A stretch of DNA of 41,545 nucleotides from Chryseobacterium gleum (lineage in GTDB: Bacteria > Bacteroidota > Bacteroidia > Flavobacteriales_D > Crocinitomicaceae): the NCBI GenBank assembly GCA_945877005.1, contig CAMCQL010000001.1:1-41545 (forward strand), written 5' to 3'. The notes below the pieces were generated by a model that had not been told where the DNA came from, ran no database searches, and was given only the letters and a program-made list of their open reading frames with translations. The translations under genes were made by a program, and so were the position numbers. Position 1 is the stretch's first letter. Each line of letters opens with the position of its first letter. Shown here piece after piece: positions 2,502 to 41,545 of this stretch.

Positions 2502-3170
2502 TTACGATAATGCATTAATAGATAGATGAAACAAAAAATCCTCTAAATTTGAGGTTATATGCAATTCATTTGTTAAACGAGGTAAATGTAATCCGAAATA
2601 ACGTTGATGAAATGAAGCTTCAACTAACGTTGCCGCCAAAGCATTTGGATACAAATAATTCGCGTTGATTTTTAACAAAATTTCTGAAATCAAACAAACA
2701 TTTCTTTTAAAGGTTAAATAATAACCCGCTTTATTTTCTTCGTCCACTTTTTTATTTAAAAATGTTTTGGAAGACTCATTCGTAATCATTTGTTTCAATA
2801 AAATTTCATCTAAATGTAAAGTTCCATTTTTTTGAGGGGATTGACTTACTAAAACCCCGATAATTCGTTTCAATTGCTCTTTTGGATCATCTATATTTGT
2901 GATGGCCAAAACAAAGTTCACCTCCATCCAGGTCCAGTAATAATTGAACAAATACATAAAAAATTGATGTTTATTTTCAAAATATCGGTATAAAGTACTT
3001 TCTGTTGTTTGGATAAAACTTGCTAATTTCTTAAATGTAAAACTTTCATAACCAATATCCTCCAATAAGAACAATCCCTCTTTTACAATTAATTCACCGA
3101 GCTTGCTTGAAATCGGATTTTTAATATACAAACTACTATTAACCTCTACTCTAATATTATCTTTAAACAT
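2502..3170 (-). CDS. TetR/AcrR-family transcriptional regulator
   Basis: N-terminal [30 protein letters not shown] prefer the ATG at 3170 ([10 protein letters not shown]) over the track start at 3191, which is a GTG lying inside a TAnnTTTG box. Confidence 0.8.
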
Positions 3171-3190
3171 ACAAAAATATATTTCACTCA

Positions 3191-3198
3191 CAAATATA
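3191..3198 (-). promoter_or_regulatory. Bacteroidota-type -7 promoter box TATATTTG for the tetR-ABC-hlyD operon
   Basis: The reverse complement of caaatata is TATATTTG, matching the TAnnTTTG consensus. It lies about 20 nt upstream of the ATG at 3170. Confidence 0.4.
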
Positions 3199-3211
3199 AT
3201 AGTAATACTAT
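3199..3211. promoter_or_regulatory. Perfect 13-nt palindrome ATAGTA-A-TACTAT, candidate TetR operator
   Basis: Read directly. It immediately abuts the -7 box on its upstream side, in the promoter spacer. Confidence 0.3.
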
Positions 3212-3354
3212 CAATATTGAAAATTTCACATTTTTTTATAGAAGTCTTGTTATTTAAAAATAATTTAGTACACTTGCATTATAGATTCAATAATCGAATC
3301 ATTACTATCACAAAAATTTCTCTTTTACATTTTAAAAAAATCAATTCATACTTT

Positions 3355-5079
3355 ATGGATATTAAAGATTTAGAAGGCAAAAAACTTTCTGATTTACGAG
3401 TTATCGCAACTGCAGCTGGAATTACCAATACAGAAACACTTAAAAAAGCAGATATCATTGATGCAATCAAAAAAATAACTTCAGAGAGTATTACTGATAA
3501 TACGATGAAGATTTCCACTCCTCCTTTAATAGAAAAAACGATACCTTCTAAAAAGAGTTCTATAAAAATCGAACAAAAAGAAAATGAAAGCTCTCTTTCT
3601 TCAAATCCAAATAAAGAGGTTTTAGTCGAACAAAAAATTGATAAAACCACTCAAATTGATGCTGAGATAAAACAAACCGAAACTCAATCAAAATCTCGAC
3701 CTCAACACAAACGACCTCATACGATCCGAAAAGTTGTAATTGCTGAAACAACAGAAAGCGTAACTACGGAAGTTAAAAAAGAGACTTCGGAAGAAACAAC
3801 AACAAAAGATCAAACAATACAATCATCCACCAACGATCCATCAATTACTATTGAAAGAACTAATAAAGTTCCTACTCATCATCAAAAAAGGCCTGAACAC
3901 AGAGATCGTGAGCGTTTACCTGAAAACCAAGTTGAAAAACAAGAAGAAATTCGTTACGATTTAGCAGGTATTGTAAGTGCTGAAGGGGTATTAGAAGTTA
4001 TTCAAGAAGGGTTTGGTTTTCTTCGTTCATCGGACTACAACTACCTACCTTCACCAGACGATATTTACGTTTCACAAAGTCAGATTAAATTTTTCGGATT
4101 GAAAACTGGAGATACTGTACTAGGCACAATTCGTCCACCAAAAGAAGGGGAGAAATTTTTCCCATTAGTTAAAGTGGATTCAATCAACGGAAGACACCCT
4201 TCCTATATCCGAGACAGAGTTCCTTTTCAATACCTTACACCACTTTTTCCAAACGAAAAATTCAACCTAACTGGTCACAAAGATGAATCTATGTCTACAA
4301 GAATCATGGATTTATTTGCCCCAATCGGCAAAGGACAAAGAGGTATGATTGTTGCGCAGCCAAAAACGGGTAAAACAATGCTTCTTAAGGATGTTGCAAA
4401 CGCAATTGCGGCTAATCATCCTGAAGTATATCTTATCGTTTTATTGATTGATGAACGACCAGAGGAGGTTACCGATATGGCAAGAAGTGTAAAAGCTGAA
4501 GTTATCGCATCTACTTTTGACGAACCGGCAGAAAGACATGTAAAAGTGGCAAATATCGTCCTTGAAAAAGCTAAAAGAATGGTTGAATGTGGCCATGATG
4601 TATGCATCTTACTTGATTCTATCACTCGATTAGCGAGAGCGTACAATACAGTTTCACCTGCTTCTGGAAAGGTACTTTCTGGAGGTGTAGATGCAAACGC
4701 ATTGCACAAACCAAAAAGATTCTTTGGGGCTGCTAGAAAAATTGAAAATGGAGGATCATTATCAATCATTGCTACAGCATTGACAGACACTGGTTCTAAA
4801 ATGGATGAAGTAATCTTTGAAGAGTTTAAAGGAACAGGAAATATGGAACTTCAATTGGATCGAAAAATAGCCAACCGTCGTATTTTTCCAGCTATAGATA
4901 TTACTGCTTCAAGTACAAGAAGAGACGACTTATTAGTTCGTAAAGATGTACTACAACGAGTTTATTTATTACGTAGACACATAGCAGATATGAATGCCGT
5001 TGAGGCAATGGAATTTTTGAAAAGCCAAATGGATAATACACTTTCAAATGAAGAGTTCCTTGCTTCAATGAATCGCTAA
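3355..5079 (+). CDS. rho: Transcription termination factor Rho with a long low-complexity N-terminal insertion
   Basis: The ATG at 3355 gives [23 protein letters not shown] (Rho N-terminal helical motif). It has a cold-shock-like RNA-binding part (GFGFLRS), Walker A PKTGKT, and a C-terminal RecA-like domain ([28 protein letters not shown]). The upstream 84 codons of the track ORF are AT-rich read-through. Confidence 0.95.
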
Positions 5080-34741: not shown

Positions 34742-35989
34742 ATGAAATCTATTTCTATTTTAAATAAATATAAATTTGAATTCATTTTAAACTTGCTGGT
34801 AATTCTATTTTATATATTTATTTATACAAATTTACACTTTCAATTAAGTGAAAATATAATGTTTTCAACGCCTGACTCTCTTTCATATCTAAACGTGAGT
34901 AAATGGATTGAAACAGGCAATGTAACAAATTCAATAGAAATTAGACCCTTTTTATTTCCGCTTTTACTCTTTATTTGCTTGAAAATCGGATATTTCACAA
35001 TTTGGTTTCTTCATTTAATATTTTGGATCATATCTTACAATTTAATCTATCAAACAGTCGTGAGTATAACAAATAATAAAATTTATTCAGTTTTACCAGT
35101 ATTGTTCTTTGTCACCAATCTTTCATTAATTACCATGTCTTTTCATGCTTTAACTGAGTTAACTGCAACATTTCTCATTAGTTTATTTTGTTATATAATT
35201 GTCAAATATCGTTTTGTCCTAAAGGAAATTAAAATTTTTCATTATCTGTTAATTGTTTTAATATTTCTTAGTCTAATTAGACCAGTATTTACTTATTTCA
35301 CGCTTTTTTTTGGTGTTTTAATGTTAATTAAGGGAAATTTTAAAAACTATTTTCAAAAACCAAAGCTTTTGTATTTATTGATTTTAATTATATCTCCTTT
35401 GATTATTCAGATTACAATAAATAAAATAACATTCAATTCTATTTCAATTTCAAAAATAGGTAATCAAACTATTACTGATTATTATCTAACTGATGGAATA
35501 ATTCATTTAAAAAATAAAAACAGAAATGAGGCTAGAAAAATTGCAAGAGAAATGAATAGATCTAAAAAAATTGAACTTCTTATGAATAACAAATTGCTTT
35601 ATTTAAGAATTTATAAAAATAATATAATAGAAAACATACGATCATCTTCAAATTTCCTTAATTATCCTAAAGGGTCAATCAGCCCTAATATGTATAATAC
35701 GATGATAATTTTGAATAAAATATACTTTCAATTACATATAATTTTTGCTTTTTTGATTCCAATTTCACTAATTATTATGTATAAACAAAAAAAAACTGAA
35801 CTAATTTTTCTAACTATTTCTATCAACTCAATATTAATATTTATACTTTTAACTTCCGGTGTTTCAAATCGCCAAGGGGACAGACTTGCCCTACCTTCAA
35901 TTGGCTGTTGGACAACACTTTACTCGATTGTTTTATTTTCAATTTTAAAAAATAAAAATCTATTTTTCGGAAAATTTAGATTTCTTTAA
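34742..35989 (+). CDS. Polytopic membrane protein, GT-C / PMT_2 (ArnT-like) glycosyltransferase-like (tentative)
   Basis: 415 aa with about 10 or more hydrophobic helices. The first loop TPDSLSYLNVSKWIETG followed by RPFLFPLLL resembles the Dxx(x)Y ... RPPLYP signature of GT-C enzymes. The gene is very AT-rich. Confidence 0.45.
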   Translation: MKSISILNKYKFEFILNLLVILFYIFIYTNLHFQLSENIMFSTPDSLSYLNVSKWIETGNVTNSIEIRPFLFPLLLFICLKIGYFTIWFLHLIFWIISYNLIYQTVVSITNNKIYSVLPVLFFVTNLSLITMSFHALTELTATFLISLFCYIIVKYRFVLKEIKIFHYLLIVLIFLSLIRPVFTYFTLFFGVLMLIKGNFKNYFQKPKLLYLLILIISPLIIQITINKITFNSISISKIGNQTITDYYLTDGIIHLKNKNRNEARKIAREMNRSKKIELLMNNKLLYLRIYKNNIIENIRSSSNFLNYPKGSISPNMYNTMIILNKIYFQLHIIFAFLIPISLIIMYKQKKTELIFLTISINSILIFILLTSGVSNRQGDRLALPSIGCWTTLYSIVLFSILKNKNLFFGKFRFL

Positions 35990-36121: not shown

Positions 36122-37297
36122 ATGAAGTTTGCTAATATTTCCAAATTGATATTGTATTCAGGTTTAAATACAGTTTTATTGTTAAGTTGTTCATCTGGTA
36201 TAGAGAGCAAACAAGCGATACAAAAACCAAAGTTAGCTGAAGAGAAAAAAGAAGAAGTGAAAGATTCAATCGTTGCGGTTGTAGATACAAGCTTAAATAA
36301 CCTTGCCTTGACTATAGGAGGAATAGATAATGATTTTATTAAAGCTAGAAAATTAAATTCACCTTATTTTTCAACCGTTCAAGCTAATTTTTCTGTGCTT
36401 GAAAACACAAAGCTGTTCCCAATTAAAAAATGGGTGAAAGAAGTTGGAATGTTACCTGAAAAATATAAAACATCGACATTATTTTATCCTTTGGCTGGTG
36501 CTGATTTTGTATATGCAGATGCATTTTTTAATGATGTAGATAATTATATTATGGTAGGATTGGAAAAACCTGGTTTTTTGCATAATTACTCAAGTTTTAC
36601 AAATACTCAAATCGAATCTTATATTTCAAGTGTATATAACAGTTTAGATGTCTCTATGAAATTTGGTTATTTCAAGACAATTAACATGAGGGTACAATTC
36701 AACCAGAAAGTAGTAAATGGAACTATTCATTCATTATTGTTTTATTTAGCTCGAACAGGCAAGAAAATTAGTAATGTGAAACATTTTCAGGTTCAAAATG
36801 ATGGGTCAATAAAATACACTGTAGGAACTGAAGCGATGAAGTCTGCAGGGGTAGAGATTTTATTTCAAAACGAACGTGGAGAAGCTAAAAAGTTATTCTA
36901 TTACAGTACTGATTTGAGCGATGCAAATAAATCATTGGATGCATTTTACAAATGGGTTTCTTCTTTTGGAGCACATAACACCATGTTAAAAGCAGCTTCT
37001 TATTTAAATTCTAGAGCGTATTTTACAAAAACTAGAAATTACATCCTAAATACTAGTCAATTGATTGTTCAAGATGATAGTGGCATTCCTTTTGAATATG
37101 TCTCTAATCAAAAATGGGACGTTAAATTGTATGGTGCATATAGAAAAGTGATTCCTTTGTTTGCTTCCAGAATTCAACCTGATTTAGTTCAAGCTTATCA
37201 AGATTCAACCAAATTAACATCAAAAATATTGCCTTTTAAAATCGGTTACAATGTAATGTTCAATGAAACCAATTTACAGCTTTTTTATAAAAAGTAA
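36122..37297 (+). CDS. Hypothetical lipoprotein (paralogue of 18674-19840)
   Basis: 391 aa. Signal peptide plus Cys (VLLLSC). Shared blocks are LFYPLAGADF, IMVGLE, NGTI, LKAASYL, IVQDDSGIP, IPLF and PFKIGY. Confidence 0.7.
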   Translation: MKFANISKLILYSGLNTVLLLSCSSGIESKQAIQKPKLAEEKKEEVKDSIVAVVDTSLNNLALTIGGIDNDFIKARKLNSPYFSTVQANFSVLENTKLFPIKKWVKEVGMLPEKYKTSTLFYPLAGADFVYADAFFNDVDNYIMVGLEKPGFLHNYSSFTNTQIESYISSVYNSLDVSMKFGYFKTINMRVQFNQKVVNGTIHSLLFYLARTGKKISNVKHFQVQNDGSIKYTVGTEAMKSAGVEILFQNERGEAKKLFYYSTDLSDANKSLDAFYKWVSSFGAHNTMLKAASYLNSRAYFTKTRNYILNTSQLIVQDDSGIPFEYVSNQKWDVKLYGAYRKVIPLFASRIQPDLVQAYQDSTKLTSKILPFKIGYNVMFNETNLQLFYKK

Positions 37298-37362: not shown

Positions 37363-38679
37363 ATGAAAGGAAGCACCAAAAAATTCAGCTTATATACTGC
37401 AATTATGATAGTGATTGCAAACATGATCGGTACAGGAGTTTTTACAAGTATTGGTTTTCAAGTTGTTGGTATTAAATCTGGTTCTGCAATCGTCTTGCTA
37501 TGGGTGATCGGTGGTATTATTTCTTTTTTTGGAGCTTATTCCTATGCGATACTTGGATCTTTTTACAAGAAAAATGGAGGTGAATATTTATTTTTAAAAC
37601 AAACCTATTCCGAACGACTTGGTTTTTTATCCGGTTGGATTTCTTTTTTGTTAGGCTTTGCTGCTCCTATTGCCGCTGCATGTTATGCATTTAGTTCTTA
37701 TTTTACTGGGGTAATGAATTTAAATCTTTCAGACAAGTTTTTGGGTGTTACCGTATTAGAAATTGTTTCTATTACTGTATTACTCATTATCACAGCAATT
37801 CATTCGTTTAGTAATCGAGTGAGTGCAGTTTTTCAAAATATTTCTTCAACACTCAAAATAATAATTTTATTACTTTTAATAGTAATAGGTTTGGTGAGTT
37901 CTAAATCAACGAATACTAGTTTTGAATTAGATGGTTTTTTTATTGATAATATTTGGAATAAAGCATTTGCATTCTCATTGTTTTTTGTGACTTATTCTTA
38001 TTCTGGATGGAATGCAGCTTCCTACATTACGGGAGAAGTTAGAAATCCTGAGAGAAATGTTCCTATAGCATTAATTATAGGTACAGGATCTGTTTCCTTG
38101 CTATATGTTTTACTAAATTTTGTCTTTTTAAAAAACATTCCTTTAATCCAAATGGAAAATAAAATTGAAATAGGAACTATTTTCACCACATATATTCTTG
38201 GATCTTTTTGGGGTAAAATTTTTGGAGGGATCATCTCTTTTTTATTAGTTTCCAGTATTTCCAGTATGGTTATTGCAGGTCCAAGAGTGACGAATGCCGT
38301 TGCAAATGATTTCAGTAAACTATCATGGTTTAGTAAACTAAGTCCTCAAGGTTTACCACTAAAAGCACTTTGGGTTCAAGCAATCATTGCCATAGCATTT
38401 ATACTTACATCCTCATTTGAAAGTATGATTACAATGATTGGATTTGTATTAAATCTATTCACTATGTTAACTGTTATCGGTGCTATAAAGGTTGGAAATA
38501 CCTTGAAAGGAGAACGAAAATTGATAAATAAATGGGTTTTTCCATTATTTCCTTTAATCTTTTTGCTCTTCCAAGTTTGGATTCTTATCTTTGGTCTCTA
38601 TTCGCGACCGATTGAGTCGTGTATTGGATTATTGATAACGCTTATTGGAATTCCTATCTACTCATGGGTAAAAAAATAA
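37363..38679 (+). CDS. APC-superfamily amino acid permease
   Basis: 438 aa with about 12 TMs. The N-terminal IVIANMIGTGVFTSIGF motif is typical of amino acid/polyamine/organocation transporters. Confidence 0.85.
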   Translation: MKGSTKKFSLYTAIMIVIANMIGTGVFTSIGFQVVGIKSGSAIVLLWVIGGIISFFGAYSYAILGSFYKKNGGEYLFLKQTYSERLGFLSGWISFLLGFAAPIAAACYAFSSYFTGVMNLNLSDKFLGVTVLEIVSITVLLIITAIHSFSNRVSAVFQNISSTLKIIILLLLIVIGLVSSKSTNTSFELDGFFIDNIWNKAFAFSLFFVTYSYSGWNAASYITGEVRNPERNVPIALIIGTGSVSLLYVLLNFVFLKNIPLIQMENKIEIGTIFTTYILGSFWGKIFGGIISFLLVSSISSMVIAGPRVTNAVANDFSKLSWFSKLSPQGLPLKALWVQAIIAIAFILTSSFESMITMIGFVLNLFTMLTVIGAIKVGNTLKGERKLINKWVFPLFPLIFLLFQVWILIFGLYSRPIESCIGLLITLIGIPIYSWVKK

Positions 38680-39944
38680 CATGTCTTTTTTTTCTGCTAT
38701 TTTCGTTTAATAGTTGGACACAATCACCATCAAATTTAACACCTGAGCAGGTGTTGAAGAAAGTGTTTGATTCAATCGGTAAAATATACCCTGAAATCAT
38801 TCAATCTCCTGAAAAATACCGATTAAAGGTAGTTCTAACAGGAGTTAATCGAAAAAACGATGAAGTGAAATTAGAAACAGCAGGTTTCAGAACAGATGCC
38901 AATGAATACCTCTACCCTGCAAGTACCGTTAAACTTCCATCATTGTTGATTGCATTGGAAGAATCTAACCGTTTACAAGCGAAATATCCATTACTAAGTT
39001 CATCTACTTCTCTTAGTTTCATTAAGAAAAAAGGTTGCTTATCAAGTAGCAACTCATTTAAAATAAACAAGATTTCACATCCTATCACGTTAGATTTATT
39101 GGGAAAACAAGTTTTATTGGTTTCAGACAATAATGCTTATAACTATATATTTGAATACAGCGGACAAAAATTATTGAATCAACGTTTAGCTTCCCTTGGA
39201 TTTGATTCTGCAAGGTTTACAAGAAAGTTTGTTTTAAATTGTTCATTAGAAGAAAATAGGATTTCAGATTCTATTGTCTTTTTAGATGCGAATAACAAAG
39301 CGATTTATTCTCGCCCAATGATCACTAACACGGATTCCATTTTTGTAGATTCAACTGCGACTTTGGGACAAAAATACATTGGGACTGATAAAAAAATTGT
39401 AGAGAAACCTTTTGATTTTTCAAAACAAAACAATTTTAATGTACTTGATTTGCATAAAGTGGTTACAGGATTAATATTTCCTACAAGCTCGTTTTCACAT
39501 AAATTTGATATTACAAAAGAACAAAGGCATTTCTTAATCAAAAACATGGGCGCTTATCCTTATGAATCAGATTTGAACTATTCCAAAACAGACTATTTTC
39601 CAGCCTATAAAAAATACATTTTTTATGGCCGCACCCCACGTGTAGACATAAGTGAAGATACACTCAATAGATTTAGGTCTTTTAATACCGTTGGACTTTC
39701 TTTTGGTTGTGTCATTGATGCTGCTTATTTGGTAGATTATGAAACAGGAAAAGAATGTATTTTGACAATGGCAGTGTATGCAAATAAAGATGAATTAATT
39801 AATGATGCTAAATACGACTACGAAACTTTTGCTTTTCCCTTATTTAAAGATTTTGGACAATTAGTTATGCATTTTTTAAATGAAAATAAATCTGCCGTGC
39901 CTAATTTGAAAACAACTGCCAAAGAAATGGGTTTTCTTAAATAA
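38664..39944 (+). CDS. Secreted class A beta-lactamase-related serine hydrolase
   Basis: The ATG at 38664 gives a signal peptide (MGKKITCLFFLLFSFNSWTQ). An SxxK motif (ASTVKLPS) and an SDN motif (LLVSDNNAY) are present, but the KTG box is not clearly seen. It overlaps the permease 3' end by 16 nt. Confidence 0.65.
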   Translation: MGKKITCLFFLLFSFNSWTQSPSNLTPEQVLKKVFDSIGKIYPEIIQSPEKYRLKVVLTGVNRKNDEVKLETAGFRTDANEYLYPASTVKLPSLLIALEESNRLQAKYPLLSSSTSLSFIKKKGCLSSSNSFKINKISHPITLDLLGKQVLLVSDNNAYNYIFEYSGQKLLNQRLASLGFDSARFTRKFVLNCSLEENRISDSIVFLDANNKAIYSRPMITNTDSIFVDSTATLGQKYIGTDKKIVEKPFDFSKQNNFNVLDLHKVVTGLIFPTSSFSHKFDITKEQRHFLIKNMGAYPYESDLNYSKTDYFPAYKKYIFYGRTPRVDISEDTLNRFRSFNTVGLSFGCVIDAAYLVDYETGKECILTMAVYANKDELINDAKYDYETFAFPLFKDFGQLVMHFLNENKSAVPNLKTTAKEMGFLK

Positions 39945-39962: not shown

Positions 39963-40481
39963 ATGGAATTAATTAGGAAAATAAAAATTGGAAGTGCATC
40001 TGATAATGATTTAGTGATAAATAATGAACAGGTGGGCGCGCATCATTTGGAATTAATCCACGATTATCAAGGGAATGTTTTTATTTCAGATTTAAATTCA
40101 TCGAACGGAACTTTTTTGAATAATCAAAAAATAGACGGCTTTTCACAAATTCATTGGGGCGATAAAGTTACAATAGCTGGAAAGTTTATGTTTGATTGGA
40201 TGAAATTAATCACAGACGATAAAAAAGATATTCCTCAATTACATAATAAATCTGAAATTGTTTATTCTGAATTGTCCAATCAAAGAATTAAAATACCAGT
40301 GATTGAGACTGGTTTTTCTTCGGTCGATCATGAAATTGAAACGGAAGAAGAAGAGGAAGATTTATTTATTGAACATTCTAATCCGGTATTACAATTTTAT
40401 TTTAATAATGCTCAAATTGTGAATATTTTCTTATTGAATTTAGTATTGAGTGTTTTATTTTATTTTGCTTTTTTAGTTTGA
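39963..40481 (+). CDS. FHA-domain protein with C-terminal TM anchor
   Basis: 172 aa. FHA pattern IKIGSASDNDLVINNEQVGAHHLEL...FISDLNSSNGTFLNNQKI...GDKVTIAGKFMF, an acidic linker (ETEEEEEDL) and a terminal TM (IFLLNLVLSVLFYFAFLV). Confidence 0.75.
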   Translation: MELIRKIKIGSASDNDLVINNEQVGAHHLELIHDYQGNVFISDLNSSNGTFLNNQKIDGFSQIHWGDKVTIAGKFMFDWMKLITDDKKDIPQLHNKSEIVYSELSNQRIKIPVIETGFSSVDHEIETEEEEEDLFIEHSNPVLQFYFNNAQIVNIFLLNLVLSVLFYFAFLV

Positions 40482-40532
40482 TTCTGAGTTGATAAGAATC
40501 AAATTATACTATGAATTTACAAAATTGAAAAG

Positions 40533-41545
40533 ATGAAAGTTGCATACAGCTATAAAACAGACCATAAATCGTTGGAGAATTCAGCTGCCTTGGCAGATAA
40601 AACGACAAAAAATGGTAAAATATTTATTTTAGCGGAAGGTTCAACCAATGATGTCAGAGGTCAATTTGCTGCAAAATTAACGGTACACTCTATTTTAGAA
40701 TTTGTCGATAAAAAAATCTTTTCAAATGTTTATTTGGGTTTGAATGAAGCTATTCAATATGCTAATAGTCAAGTGTATCGTAAGGTTATTCAAGATGAAA
40801 ATTTGAGAGGTGTCCATGTTTCTGTAGCTATATTATTAGTGAAAGATGAGGGGGTTTTCAGTGCAAGTCTTGGAAGCATATATGGCTATGTTAAATCTGA
40901 CAATAAACTTGTGCGATTGCATAAGGATTCAGGAAATGTTCAAGTTCAAGGCTATAAAGACCAATCGAATGTTGTTCCTGTAGCGAAAGCTTTAGGGAAT
41001 TTGCCTTTAGTATCTCCATTCATTTCAAATGCTCCCTATTTAGCAAAACCTGGTGATGTTTTCGTTTTAGCTACATCATCATTGGTGAAATCCATCGGAG
41101 AGACACAATTGAACAATAAGGTGTTTTATACAGATATTGATGTAAATGCAATTGAAATTGTAGAAAGTTCAAAGAAAAATGGAGGGGAAGGTAGTTATAC
41201 TGTTCAGTTAATTACCGTTATTGAAGGGGCAGTTGGAGTAAGTACAATTGCATCTACAAACATATCTTCTCAATCAAAACAACAACCTACGAAACACCAA
41301 GAAAAACTAGAAAAGAAAACAAAAACACCTGTTAATATGAATTTTTTCGGCAAAAAAGCAGGACTAAAAGTTGCTTTACTTGTTGTGGGTGTTTTAATCT
41401 TTTTATTTGCAATGTTACGTTCTCCAAAAGATGATTCAAATATGAAATTTGACGAAAAAGACACATCTGCAATGGTGAATGATACAACAAATCAATACCA
41501 AGATCTTGATGATATTATGGAATACGAAGCTCCTGTTGAGGAGGA
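40533..41545 (+). CDS. PP2C-fold protein (probable pseudophosphatase) with TM segment, 3' end beyond the window
   Basis: Hand translation from the ATG at 40533 is open to the window end. It is colinear with bacterial PP2C blocks (YKTDHKSLENSA; IFILAEGSTNDVRGQFAAKL; VFSASLGSIYGY; AKALG; PGDVFVLATSSL; KKNGGEGSYTVQLITV), followed by TM GLKVALLVVGVLIFLFAML. It is absent from the ORF track because it has no stop in the window. Confidence 0.7.
   Translation, partial: MKVAYSYKTDHKSLENSAALADKTTKNGKIFILAEGSTNDVRGQFAAKLTVHSILEFVDKKIFSNVYLGLNEAIQYANSQVYRKVIQDENLRGVHVSVAILLVKDEGVFSASLGSIYGYVKSDNKLVRLHKDSGNVQVQGYKDQSNVVPVAKALGNLPLVSPFISNAPYLAKPGDVFVLATSSLVKSIGETQLNNKVFYTDIDVNAIEIVESSKKNGGEGSYTVQLITVIEGAVGVSTIASTNISSQSKQQPTKHQEKLEKKTKTPVNMNFFGKKAGLKVALLVVGVLIFLFAMLRSPKDDSNMKFDEKDTSAMVNDTTNQYQDLDDIMEYEAPVEE

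Follow-up and report, generated by a model that had tools for sequence, protein, structure and literature searches.

The locus described here raises the question of what becomes of a phosphothreonine (pThr) reader and its partner phosphatase once the kinase has been lost. The stretch analysed, hereafter the window, comprises the 41,545 nucleotides (nt) of contig CAMCQL010000001.1 (assembly GCA_945877005.1, GTDB lineage Crocinitomicaceae), and its last two genes, here called gene A and gene B, encode an FHA protein and a membrane protein with a PP2C fold. A first-pass annotation, made by eye from the letters, had described them as two same-strand genes 51 nt apart, both apparently lacking their recognition or catalytic residues, and this layout is confirmed (Table 1). 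We assign a probability of about 0.62 to the reading that the pair is a catalytically dead derivative, confined to one lineage and devoid of a kinase, of a Bacteroidota envelope phospho-signalling cluster, and that it now serves as a phosphorylation-independent membrane scaffold.

Gene A matches the Pfam FHA family (PF00498) over residues 7-71, corresponding to profile positions 1-66 of 67, with E=3e-14 and 53.6 bits against a cut-off of 20.7. The motifs GR, SxxH and NG define pThr binding by FHA domains (PMC3162421), and we have placed the corresponding loops by HMMER alignment to the solved domains of Rv1747 (6cah) and EmbR (2fez). Residues G10-S11 fall under the G-R dipeptide of both structures, the Arg position being occupied by Ser; G25-A-H-H28 fall under S-R-H-H, with the Ser of SxxH replaced by Gly and the His retained; and S46-S-N48-G-T falls under S-x-N-G-T, the NG motif being retained. 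These are the substitutions that had been proposed by eye and, since both GR and SxxH are replaced, the two phosphate-contacting side chains are absent from gene A. Across the clade of orthologous pairs, 15 of 16 distinct lineages have Ser in place of the Arg, L009 alone having G-R; the residue at the Ser position of SxxH is G, S, N or A, and most orthologues have L, T, S or H instead of the Asn of NG. Whereas these canonical loops vary, the motif AGKFMFDWxKL, located directly after the FHA fold, is near-invariant, and may provide an alternative interaction surface. The C-terminal helix that would anchor the protein, recognised by hydropathy where it had been expected, is likewise strongly conserved in sequence.

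Orthologues of gene A form seven clusters at 66–98% identity, to which add 15 loci at 43–99%, and one of them is annotated in a Crocinitomicaceae metagenome-assembled genome, or MAG (NDF59849.1). The best NCBIfam match is NF049868 (FhaB_Rv0019c), which covers the FHA part only and stays below the cut-off (48 bits against 125). A match to Pfam Yop-YscD_cpl (PF16697; 37.7 bits against 33.2) was also obtained, and membership of the YscD family of type III secretion systems was rejected, because PF16697 overlaps the FHA clan and there are no secretion-system genes nearby. A short AT-rich inverted repeat (window 40476-40502), composed of TGATTCT, 9 nt and AGAATCA, lies across the stop codon of gene A.

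The PP2C fold of gene B is remote in sequence and close in structure. The NCBIfam profile Stp1_PP2C aligns to residues 23-227 (profile 19-231 of 232, E=3e-14) at 53 bits against a cut-off of 230, Pfam PP2C_2 yields E=0.01 and 15.9 bits, below the gathering threshold (GA) of 24, and a phmmer search of the PDB returns Mycobacterium tuberculosis PstP as best match (E=1e-6). A word-indexed search using full-length gene B was swamped by LysM matches and gave only 4 orthologues; hence an exhaustive HMMER search was carried out with the PP2C domain alone, which retrieved 1074 relatives. An AlphaFold2 (AF2) model of the full-length protein, built on a four-sequence alignment, was unusable, with a predicted local distance difference test score (pLDDT) of 37, and the modelling was repeated on the domain with 84 sequences, resulting in a pLDDT of 92.9 and a predicted template modelling score (pTM) of 0.90. 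Comparison of this model with PstP (1txo) using Foldseek gives E=3.5e-16 and a TM-score of 0.78, the top matches being PstP, tPphA, Streptococcus agalactiae STP and Stp1 (E-values from 1e-16 to 1e-13) as well as PppA (6jkv), with TM-scores of 0.75–0.81.

In spite of this fold, the catalytic centre is lost. An alignment with 78 canonical relatives, from which the catalytic positions were read, shows that (R)xxNED has become ENSA, its Arg being deleted (gap column), CDGMGGH has become AEGSTND, GMGTT GVHVS, GDSRIY GSIYGY, CSDGL ATSSL and GGxDNIT GGEGSYT; the DHS and GTT motifs are also lost. The five Asp positions, which are Asp in 99–100% of the canonical relatives, read A18, E35, S115, S182 and G220, so that none of the five is kept, and the window protein retains 23 of the 57 near-invariant columns (≥90% in the same relatives), mostly structural Gly, Ala or Leu. 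Replacement of the metal-binding Asp residues had been proposed by eye, and it holds for all five; only the DN(I/V)T block was misplaced, corresponding to G220-S-Y-T and not to S-Y-T-V, a one-residue shift which, on the family alignment, leaves the conclusion unchanged. The phmmer alignment had matched D22 to the NED Asp of PstP; this was rejected, as the family alignment gives A18 and the D22 column is unconserved in canonical relatives. At position 182, 100% of these have Asp, and the window protein with its five closest homologues shows S, A, E, D, S or N, a variability which indicates that the position has been released from constraint. We infer that the PP2C fold of gene B would be unable to hold a binuclear metal centre or to bind phosphate, and that it is probably inactive.

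Gene B runs past the end of the window, and its remaining part was recovered from contigs L001-L006, which encode an identical FHA protein and a complete gene B of 442 amino acids (aa) with a C-terminal LysM domain. The L001 protein differs from that of the window at 3 of 337 shared residues (~99% identical). In it, LysM (PF01476, precomputed Pfam annotation) lies beyond the window end, and the domain is also found in the gene B orthologues of L016 (E=8e-15) and L009 (E=2e-14). The membrane helix that the first-pass annotation had placed after the PP2C fold is recovered by hydropathy, and is followed by a clade-specific juxtamembrane motif, (F/L)RxP(K/H)DD...DTTNxxQDLExxMEYE, which begins in the window, continues in L001 (11456-11600) and is absent from the canonical relatives; then come a variable, acidic, Glu/Lys-rich linker of low complexity and the LysM domain. 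Because gene B has no signal peptide, a K-rich N-terminal flank to its transmembrane helix and a LysM domain at its C-terminus, an N-in, C-out topology is predicted, with the PP2C fold in the cytoplasm and LysM in the periplasm; PstP-type phosphatases have the same layout of cytoplasmic PP2C fold, transmembrane helix and outer tail. The further components that the first-pass annotation had allowed for downstream are LysM and a co-conserved permease (see below); there is no kinase.

The degeneration of the PP2C domain is graded across the clade, every member of which has lost at least one of the metal ligands. Canonical NED reads N(S/T)D in the majority sub-clade and NSA in the sub-clade formed by the window, L007 and L015; in the same order, CDGMGGH reads ADGxPxD and (A/T)EGSTN, GDSR reads GN(S/A)(R/K) and G(S/K)xx, SDG reads T(H/N/Y)G and TSS or TEN, and DN reads (E/D)N and G(S/N). 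L008 is separately degenerate (SEAFPNS, GKSK, STSPL and QGN), and the greatest losses are those of the window sub-clade and L008. Conservation of both substitutions and adjacency in orthologues, on which the first-pass annotation had made its idea depend, is therefore observed in respect to the adjacency (16 of 16 lineages), the Ser at the Arg position and the absence of any intact PP2C centre, and it is not observed as a uniform state.

The scan for such loci covered one genome per GTDB species and yielded 14 loci, all from freshwater Flavobacteriia or Crocinitomicaceae MAGs; L007, L008 and L009 come from metagenomes. Three of the contigs, L015, L016 and L026, are labelled 'Candidatus Planktophila lacus', 'Chitinophaga pinensis' and 'Chryseobacterium gleum', and show Crocinitomicaceae-like gene orders, L015 being 99% identical to the low-GC window; the taxonomy of these MAGs is probably mislabelled.

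The pair is part of a conserved trio. Downstream of gene B lies a gene for a 550-aa amino-acid permease of the APC family (BcaP-like), after which unrelated housekeeping genes follow, and the FHA gene, gene B and this permease are adjacent and co-oriented in 16 of the 16 loci with both flanks readable (Crocinitomicaceae-like MAGs). In 15 other loci the FHA gene and gene B share one strand and are separated by 34–75 nt; the spacer between gene B and the permease measures 7–99 nt. The trio is intact although both flanks are rearranged: upstream one finds either a gene for a 391-aa protein, a permease and a Beta-lactamase2-like gene, or GyrA and a ClpB-type ATPase, and downstream RarA, SRP54 or an unknown gene. 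In agreement with the earlier remark that no kinase is visible, tblastn with two Hanks kinases of the canonical cluster described below gave 0 matches in the window or in 20 pair-carrying loci (~10 kb on each side).

Purifying selection acts on both genes: the ratio of non-synonymous to synonymous substitution rates (dN/dS), measured against L007, is 0.16 for the FHA gene and 0.11 for the PP2C domain, and the reading frames are intact at full length in 17 lineages. They diverge faster than the neighbouring genes: identity to distant loci is ~45% for the FHA protein and 37% for gene B, compared with 62–72% for the permeases and RarA and ~50–55% for the Beta-lactamase2-like and 391-aa proteins.

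The origin of the pair is indicated by its nearest non-degenerate relatives, which share 26–38% identity with the clade and ~51% with one another. These proteins have all PP2C motifs and a transmembrane helix, and Pfam detects LysM in 10 of the 78. Four of them could be placed in genomes, and all four lie within a recurrent FHA-rich cluster, beside Hanks kinases and FHA proteins. The shared parts of this cluster are a zinc-ribbon FHA protein (~210–220 aa), an FHA protein of ~510–520 aa, the membrane PP2C protein and a short Hanks kinase. Three of the four clusters have the kinase gene directly after the PP2C gene, and in the remaining one it lies further downstream. An FHA protein with a transmembrane segment and a Peptidase_M48 domain, together with an FHA-FHA-ABC transporter (Rv1747-like), occurs in the three clusters whose contigs are long enough, two of which also have LEA_2; there are further kinases or FHA proteins, and no single locus has every component together. 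The best match of the window FHA protein among the cluster proteins is a 126-aa tail-anchored FHA protein of a kinase-containing cluster (L012 13577-13957), which has V-G-S in place of G-R and SSFGT in place of SxNGT. Since the closest canonical relatives sit in this kinase- and FHA-rich cluster, the window pair is, on homology, a reduced and degenerate derivative of it, which upholds the proposed descent from a phospho-signalling pair. The Arg-less state of the FHA protein may predate the loss of the kinase, because the FHA protein of the L012 cluster is already Arg-less. No description of the canonical parent cluster was found in the literature on FHA, PP2C or LysM proteins in Bacteroidota.

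These results suggest how the pair might work. Gene B would be a type-II inner-membrane protein, whose cytoplasmic PP2C fold binds neither metal nor phosphate and whose periplasmic tail, made up of the juxtamembrane motif and LysM, would tether it to peptidoglycan. Gene A would be held at the cytoplasmic face of the same membrane by its C-terminal tail anchor, presenting an FHA fold that lacks the pThr-gripping Arg and, in the window, also the Ser. Together, A and B would form a phosphorylation-independent protein-protein complex, that is, a pseudo-enzyme scaffold at the inner membrane, in which binding would take place through surfaces other than the old active sites, for example AGKFMFDWxKL, the transmembrane helices and the periplasmic motif. 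The likeliest client is the APC permease encoded after gene B, proposed because it is the only conserved third gene, and contact with the cell wall could then be coupled to the activity or placement of the permease. This link to the permease is tentative, and we regard it as rather doubtful. Distinctly unlikely, in our view, is a more elaborate version of it, according to which the trio is a phosphorylation-free transmembrane switch from cell wall to nutrient uptake: contact of peptidoglycan or a muropeptide with LysM and the juxtamembrane motif would be relayed through the single transmembrane helix, the dead PP2C domain, with its retained PP2C 'switch' architecture, would alter its grip on the tail-anchored FHA protein, and this adaptor would gate or position the adjacent amino-acid permease, with no kinase involved.

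A number of observations weigh against the scaffold reading. The Ser of SxxH is kept in 3 of 8 close orthologues (a set that includes the window), and in L009 both the canonical G-R and this Ser are retained in the FHA protein. D18 and D35 persist in most sister lineages, which have N at position 115, H, N or Y at 182 and E or D at 220 and might still bind metal, so that the loss of activity may not extend to the whole family. The Arg-less tail-anchored FHA protein encoded beside kinases in L012 shows that loss of the Arg alone does not amount to escape from phospho-signalling. The kinase search was confined to ~10 kb around the loci, and kinases may lie elsewhere in the genomes. Finally, the permease linkage could be synteny inherited within one family, with no functional coupling.

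This last point bears on the alternative that A and B are both functional and mutually unrelated, their adjacency, as well as that of the permease, being no more than inherited gene order, and gene B being a LysM protein with an inert cytoplasmic domain. All loci belong to one family-level group of freshwater MAGs, and neighbouring housekeeping genes are partly syntenic too, as this alternative predicts. Inherited order does not, however, readily account for a trio that is preserved while the flanks on both sides are rearranged, nor for the derivation of both genes from one ancestral FHA/PP2C cluster, and the dN/dS of the PP2C domain is not that of inert filler. We consider this explanation unlikely.

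The remaining points bear on a second alternative, in which the pair is a working reader and eraser that uses non-canonical ligands (E35 and other acidic residues in the window, His or Asn in the sisters) and is served by distant Hanks kinases. The two Asp, with E, H or N at the other metal positions, of the sister lineages, the canonical FHA pocket of L009, the L012 arrangement and the short span inspected for kinases would all fit such a pair. The window lineage, however, has lost not only the five Asp but also the phosphate-binding Arg, the GMGGH loop and the DHS and GTT motifs, position 182 is free to drift among close orthologues, and both phosphate-contacting side chains of the FHA domain are absent. 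In addition, all canonical relatives examined have a kinase within their cluster, while none is found near the pair of any clade member. Retained phospho-chemistry thus appears quite improbable. That A and B are decaying remnants, or incipient pseudogenes, of a lost signalling cluster would agree with their faster evolution relative to neighbours, but is most improbable and was rejected on the basis of the low dN/dS (0.11–0.16) and the intact frames, to which the invariance of new clade-specific motifs can be added. An origin of the degeneracy in a shifted by-eye alignment, of which the displaced DN(I/V)T block might have been a sign, is refuted, as profile, PDB, family and structure-based comparisons agree on the substitutions and give no Arg or Ser in the FHA loops and no Asp at the metal sites.

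Returning to the scaffold reading, the known system that most resembles the pair is mycobacterial PstP (Rv0018c) with FhaB/FipA (Rv0019c), in which a membrane PP2C protein with cytoplasmic domain, one transmembrane helix and outer tail is likewise encoded beside a small FHA protein with a single transmembrane helix. PstP is the best match of gene B in both sequence and structure, and the two systems have a connection to the cell wall in common, here through LysM. They differ in their centres: PstP is active as a Mn phosphatase and the pThr pocket of FhaB is canonical, whereas the present pair has lost both. Neither PknA/PknB-type kinases nor RodA/PbpA are found near this pair. Also, the domain order of FhaB is opposite to that of gene A, which has an N-terminal FHA domain and a C-terminal helix. 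The FHA-rich cluster (L010-L014, L029-L031) provides the closest canonical homologues of gene B, with the same PP2C-transmembrane arrangement and, in some, LysM; its PP2C motifs are intact, and it includes between one and three kinases and from four to six FHA proteins, whereas the module of the window has been reduced to two genes, both degenerate, and has acquired a permease gene beside it as well as motifs specific to the clade.

Further systems share features with the pair. The FHA folds of YscD/MxiG (type III secretion) and EssC (type VII secretion) are, like that predicted for gene A, located at the cytoplasmic face, and they lack or do not use the GR/SxxH/NG pocket, serving as structural or interaction modules. 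In EssC and MxiG the fold has a structural role within a membrane machine and does not bind pThr (PMC4925161, PMC3162421), and these two, like the eukaryotic pseudophosphatases with a PP2C fold, are precedents for the proposed scaffold. Gene A differs from these in being a small stand-alone tail-anchored protein with a PP2C-fold partner and no secretion genes nearby. Eukaryotic TAB1 and PHLPP, the latter recently argued to be a PP2C-fold pseudophosphatase (PMC13358185), have, like gene B, kept the fold with metal or catalytic residues replaced, and are reused as binding modules; gene B is of independent bacterial origin, is membrane-anchored with an ectodomain predicted to bind peptidoglycan, and has a degenerate FHA partner. 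In the PpkA/PppA/Fha1 pathway of type VI secretion an FHA and a PP2C protein also come together at the envelope, PppA being one of the structural matches; the present pair has no type VI secretion genes and no kinase, its PP2C domain is apparently dead and its FHA domain lacks the pThr pocket. No description of the module formed by the FHA gene and gene B was found in the literature on FHA, PP2C or LysM proteins in Bacteroidota or on bacterial PP2C pseudophosphatases, in line with the first-pass remark that no described system of this architecture was recognised. Degenerate FHA folds, PP2C pseudophosphatases and membrane PP2C proteins are known singly; their combination, in which a dead PP2C-transmembrane-LysM protein and a degenerate, tail-anchored FHA protein occur without a kinase and within a decay series, is undescribed.

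Table 1. Positions of the features discussed; coordinates refer to the window unless another contig is named.
Feature	Position	Strand	Basis
Beta-lactamase2-like secreted protein, SxxK = STVK plus SDN	38664..39944	+	precomputed Pfam PF13354
Gene A, tail-anchored FHA protein, 172 aa	39963..40481	+	open reading frame (ORF), Pfam FHA E=3e-14
FHA fold, residues 7-71, non-canonical loops	39981..40175	+	HMMER alignments to 6cah and 2fez
Clade-invariant motif AGKFMFDWxKL, residues 72-82	40176..40208	+	near-invariant in 16 lineages
C-terminal transmembrane helix of gene A (tail anchor), residues 152-172	40416..40478	+	Kyte-Doolittle 19-residue maximum 2.34 at residue 152
A-B spacer, 51 nt	40482..40532	.	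ORF coordinates; same gene strand on both sides
Gene B, 337 of 442 codons inside the window, cut by window end	40533..41545	+	translation
PP2C-fold domain, residues 1-232, catalytic centre lost	40533..41228	+	AF2, Foldseek, family alignment
Transmembrane helix of gene B, residues 277-295	41361..41417	+	hydropathy maximum 2.66
Predicted periplasmic juxtamembrane motif (RSPKDD ... DTTNQYQDLDDIMEYE)	41418..41545	+	conserved in 17 aligned gene B sequences
FHA-rich cluster, example in L010	1891-9906
FHA-rich cluster, example in L012	1539-13957
FHA-rich cluster, example in L029	2587-8346
FHA-rich cluster, example in L031	7769-19199

The genomic setting of the pair is that of an ordinary Bacteroidota chromosome, the window having a G+C content of 30.5% and encoding Rho, UvrA, ResB/CcsA, BatA, an ABC exporter and proteins sorted by the type IX secretion system. 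Rho (window 3103-5079, 658 residues) has a long N-terminal extension, with the RNA-binding domain starting at ~294, which is typical of Bacteroidota. The gene for the Beta-lactamase2-like protein, which is secreted or lipoprotein-like, overlaps the end of the permease gene upstream of it and is separated from the FHA gene by 18 nt. About half of the lineages have it in synteny with the pair (L007, L009, L015, L018, L019, L022, L027 and L028) and L016, L017, L020, L021 and L023-L026 do not; the gene is possibly accessory, outside the core module, and its product gave 0 matches in a sequence search of the PDB and 0 in NCBIfam. Two further proteins, of 391 aa (36122-37297) and 415 aa (34742-35989), are conserved and match neither Pfam nor NCBIfam. 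The gene for the former moves together with the block of permease and Beta-lactamase2-like gene in several lineages, and no full-length copy is called at the matching position of L001 and L003, L001 having only a 78-aa fragment. A scan of the block for sigma-70 promoters and terminators, a method ill-suited to Bacteroidota promoters, gave results not above shuffled expectation and no operon boundaries.

As for the meaning of these findings, the clade is narrow, uncultured and freshwater, and the function proposed is deduced from sequence and model. Within this scope, the PP2C and FHA folds of one small clade appear to have lost their phospho-chemistry, with intermediates in sister lineages and an active, ancestor-type cluster in relatives. 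The cataloguing of pseudo-enzymes in bacterial Ser/Thr signalling is only beginning and concerns mostly pseudokinases. The loci described here offer a natural series for asking how a reader/eraser pair is repurposed after loss of the kinase, and which surfaces take over. They also raise the question of whether LysM-anchored membrane PP2C proteins might act as cell-wall sensors in Bacteroidota, in a manner comparable to the PASTA kinases of Gram-positives.

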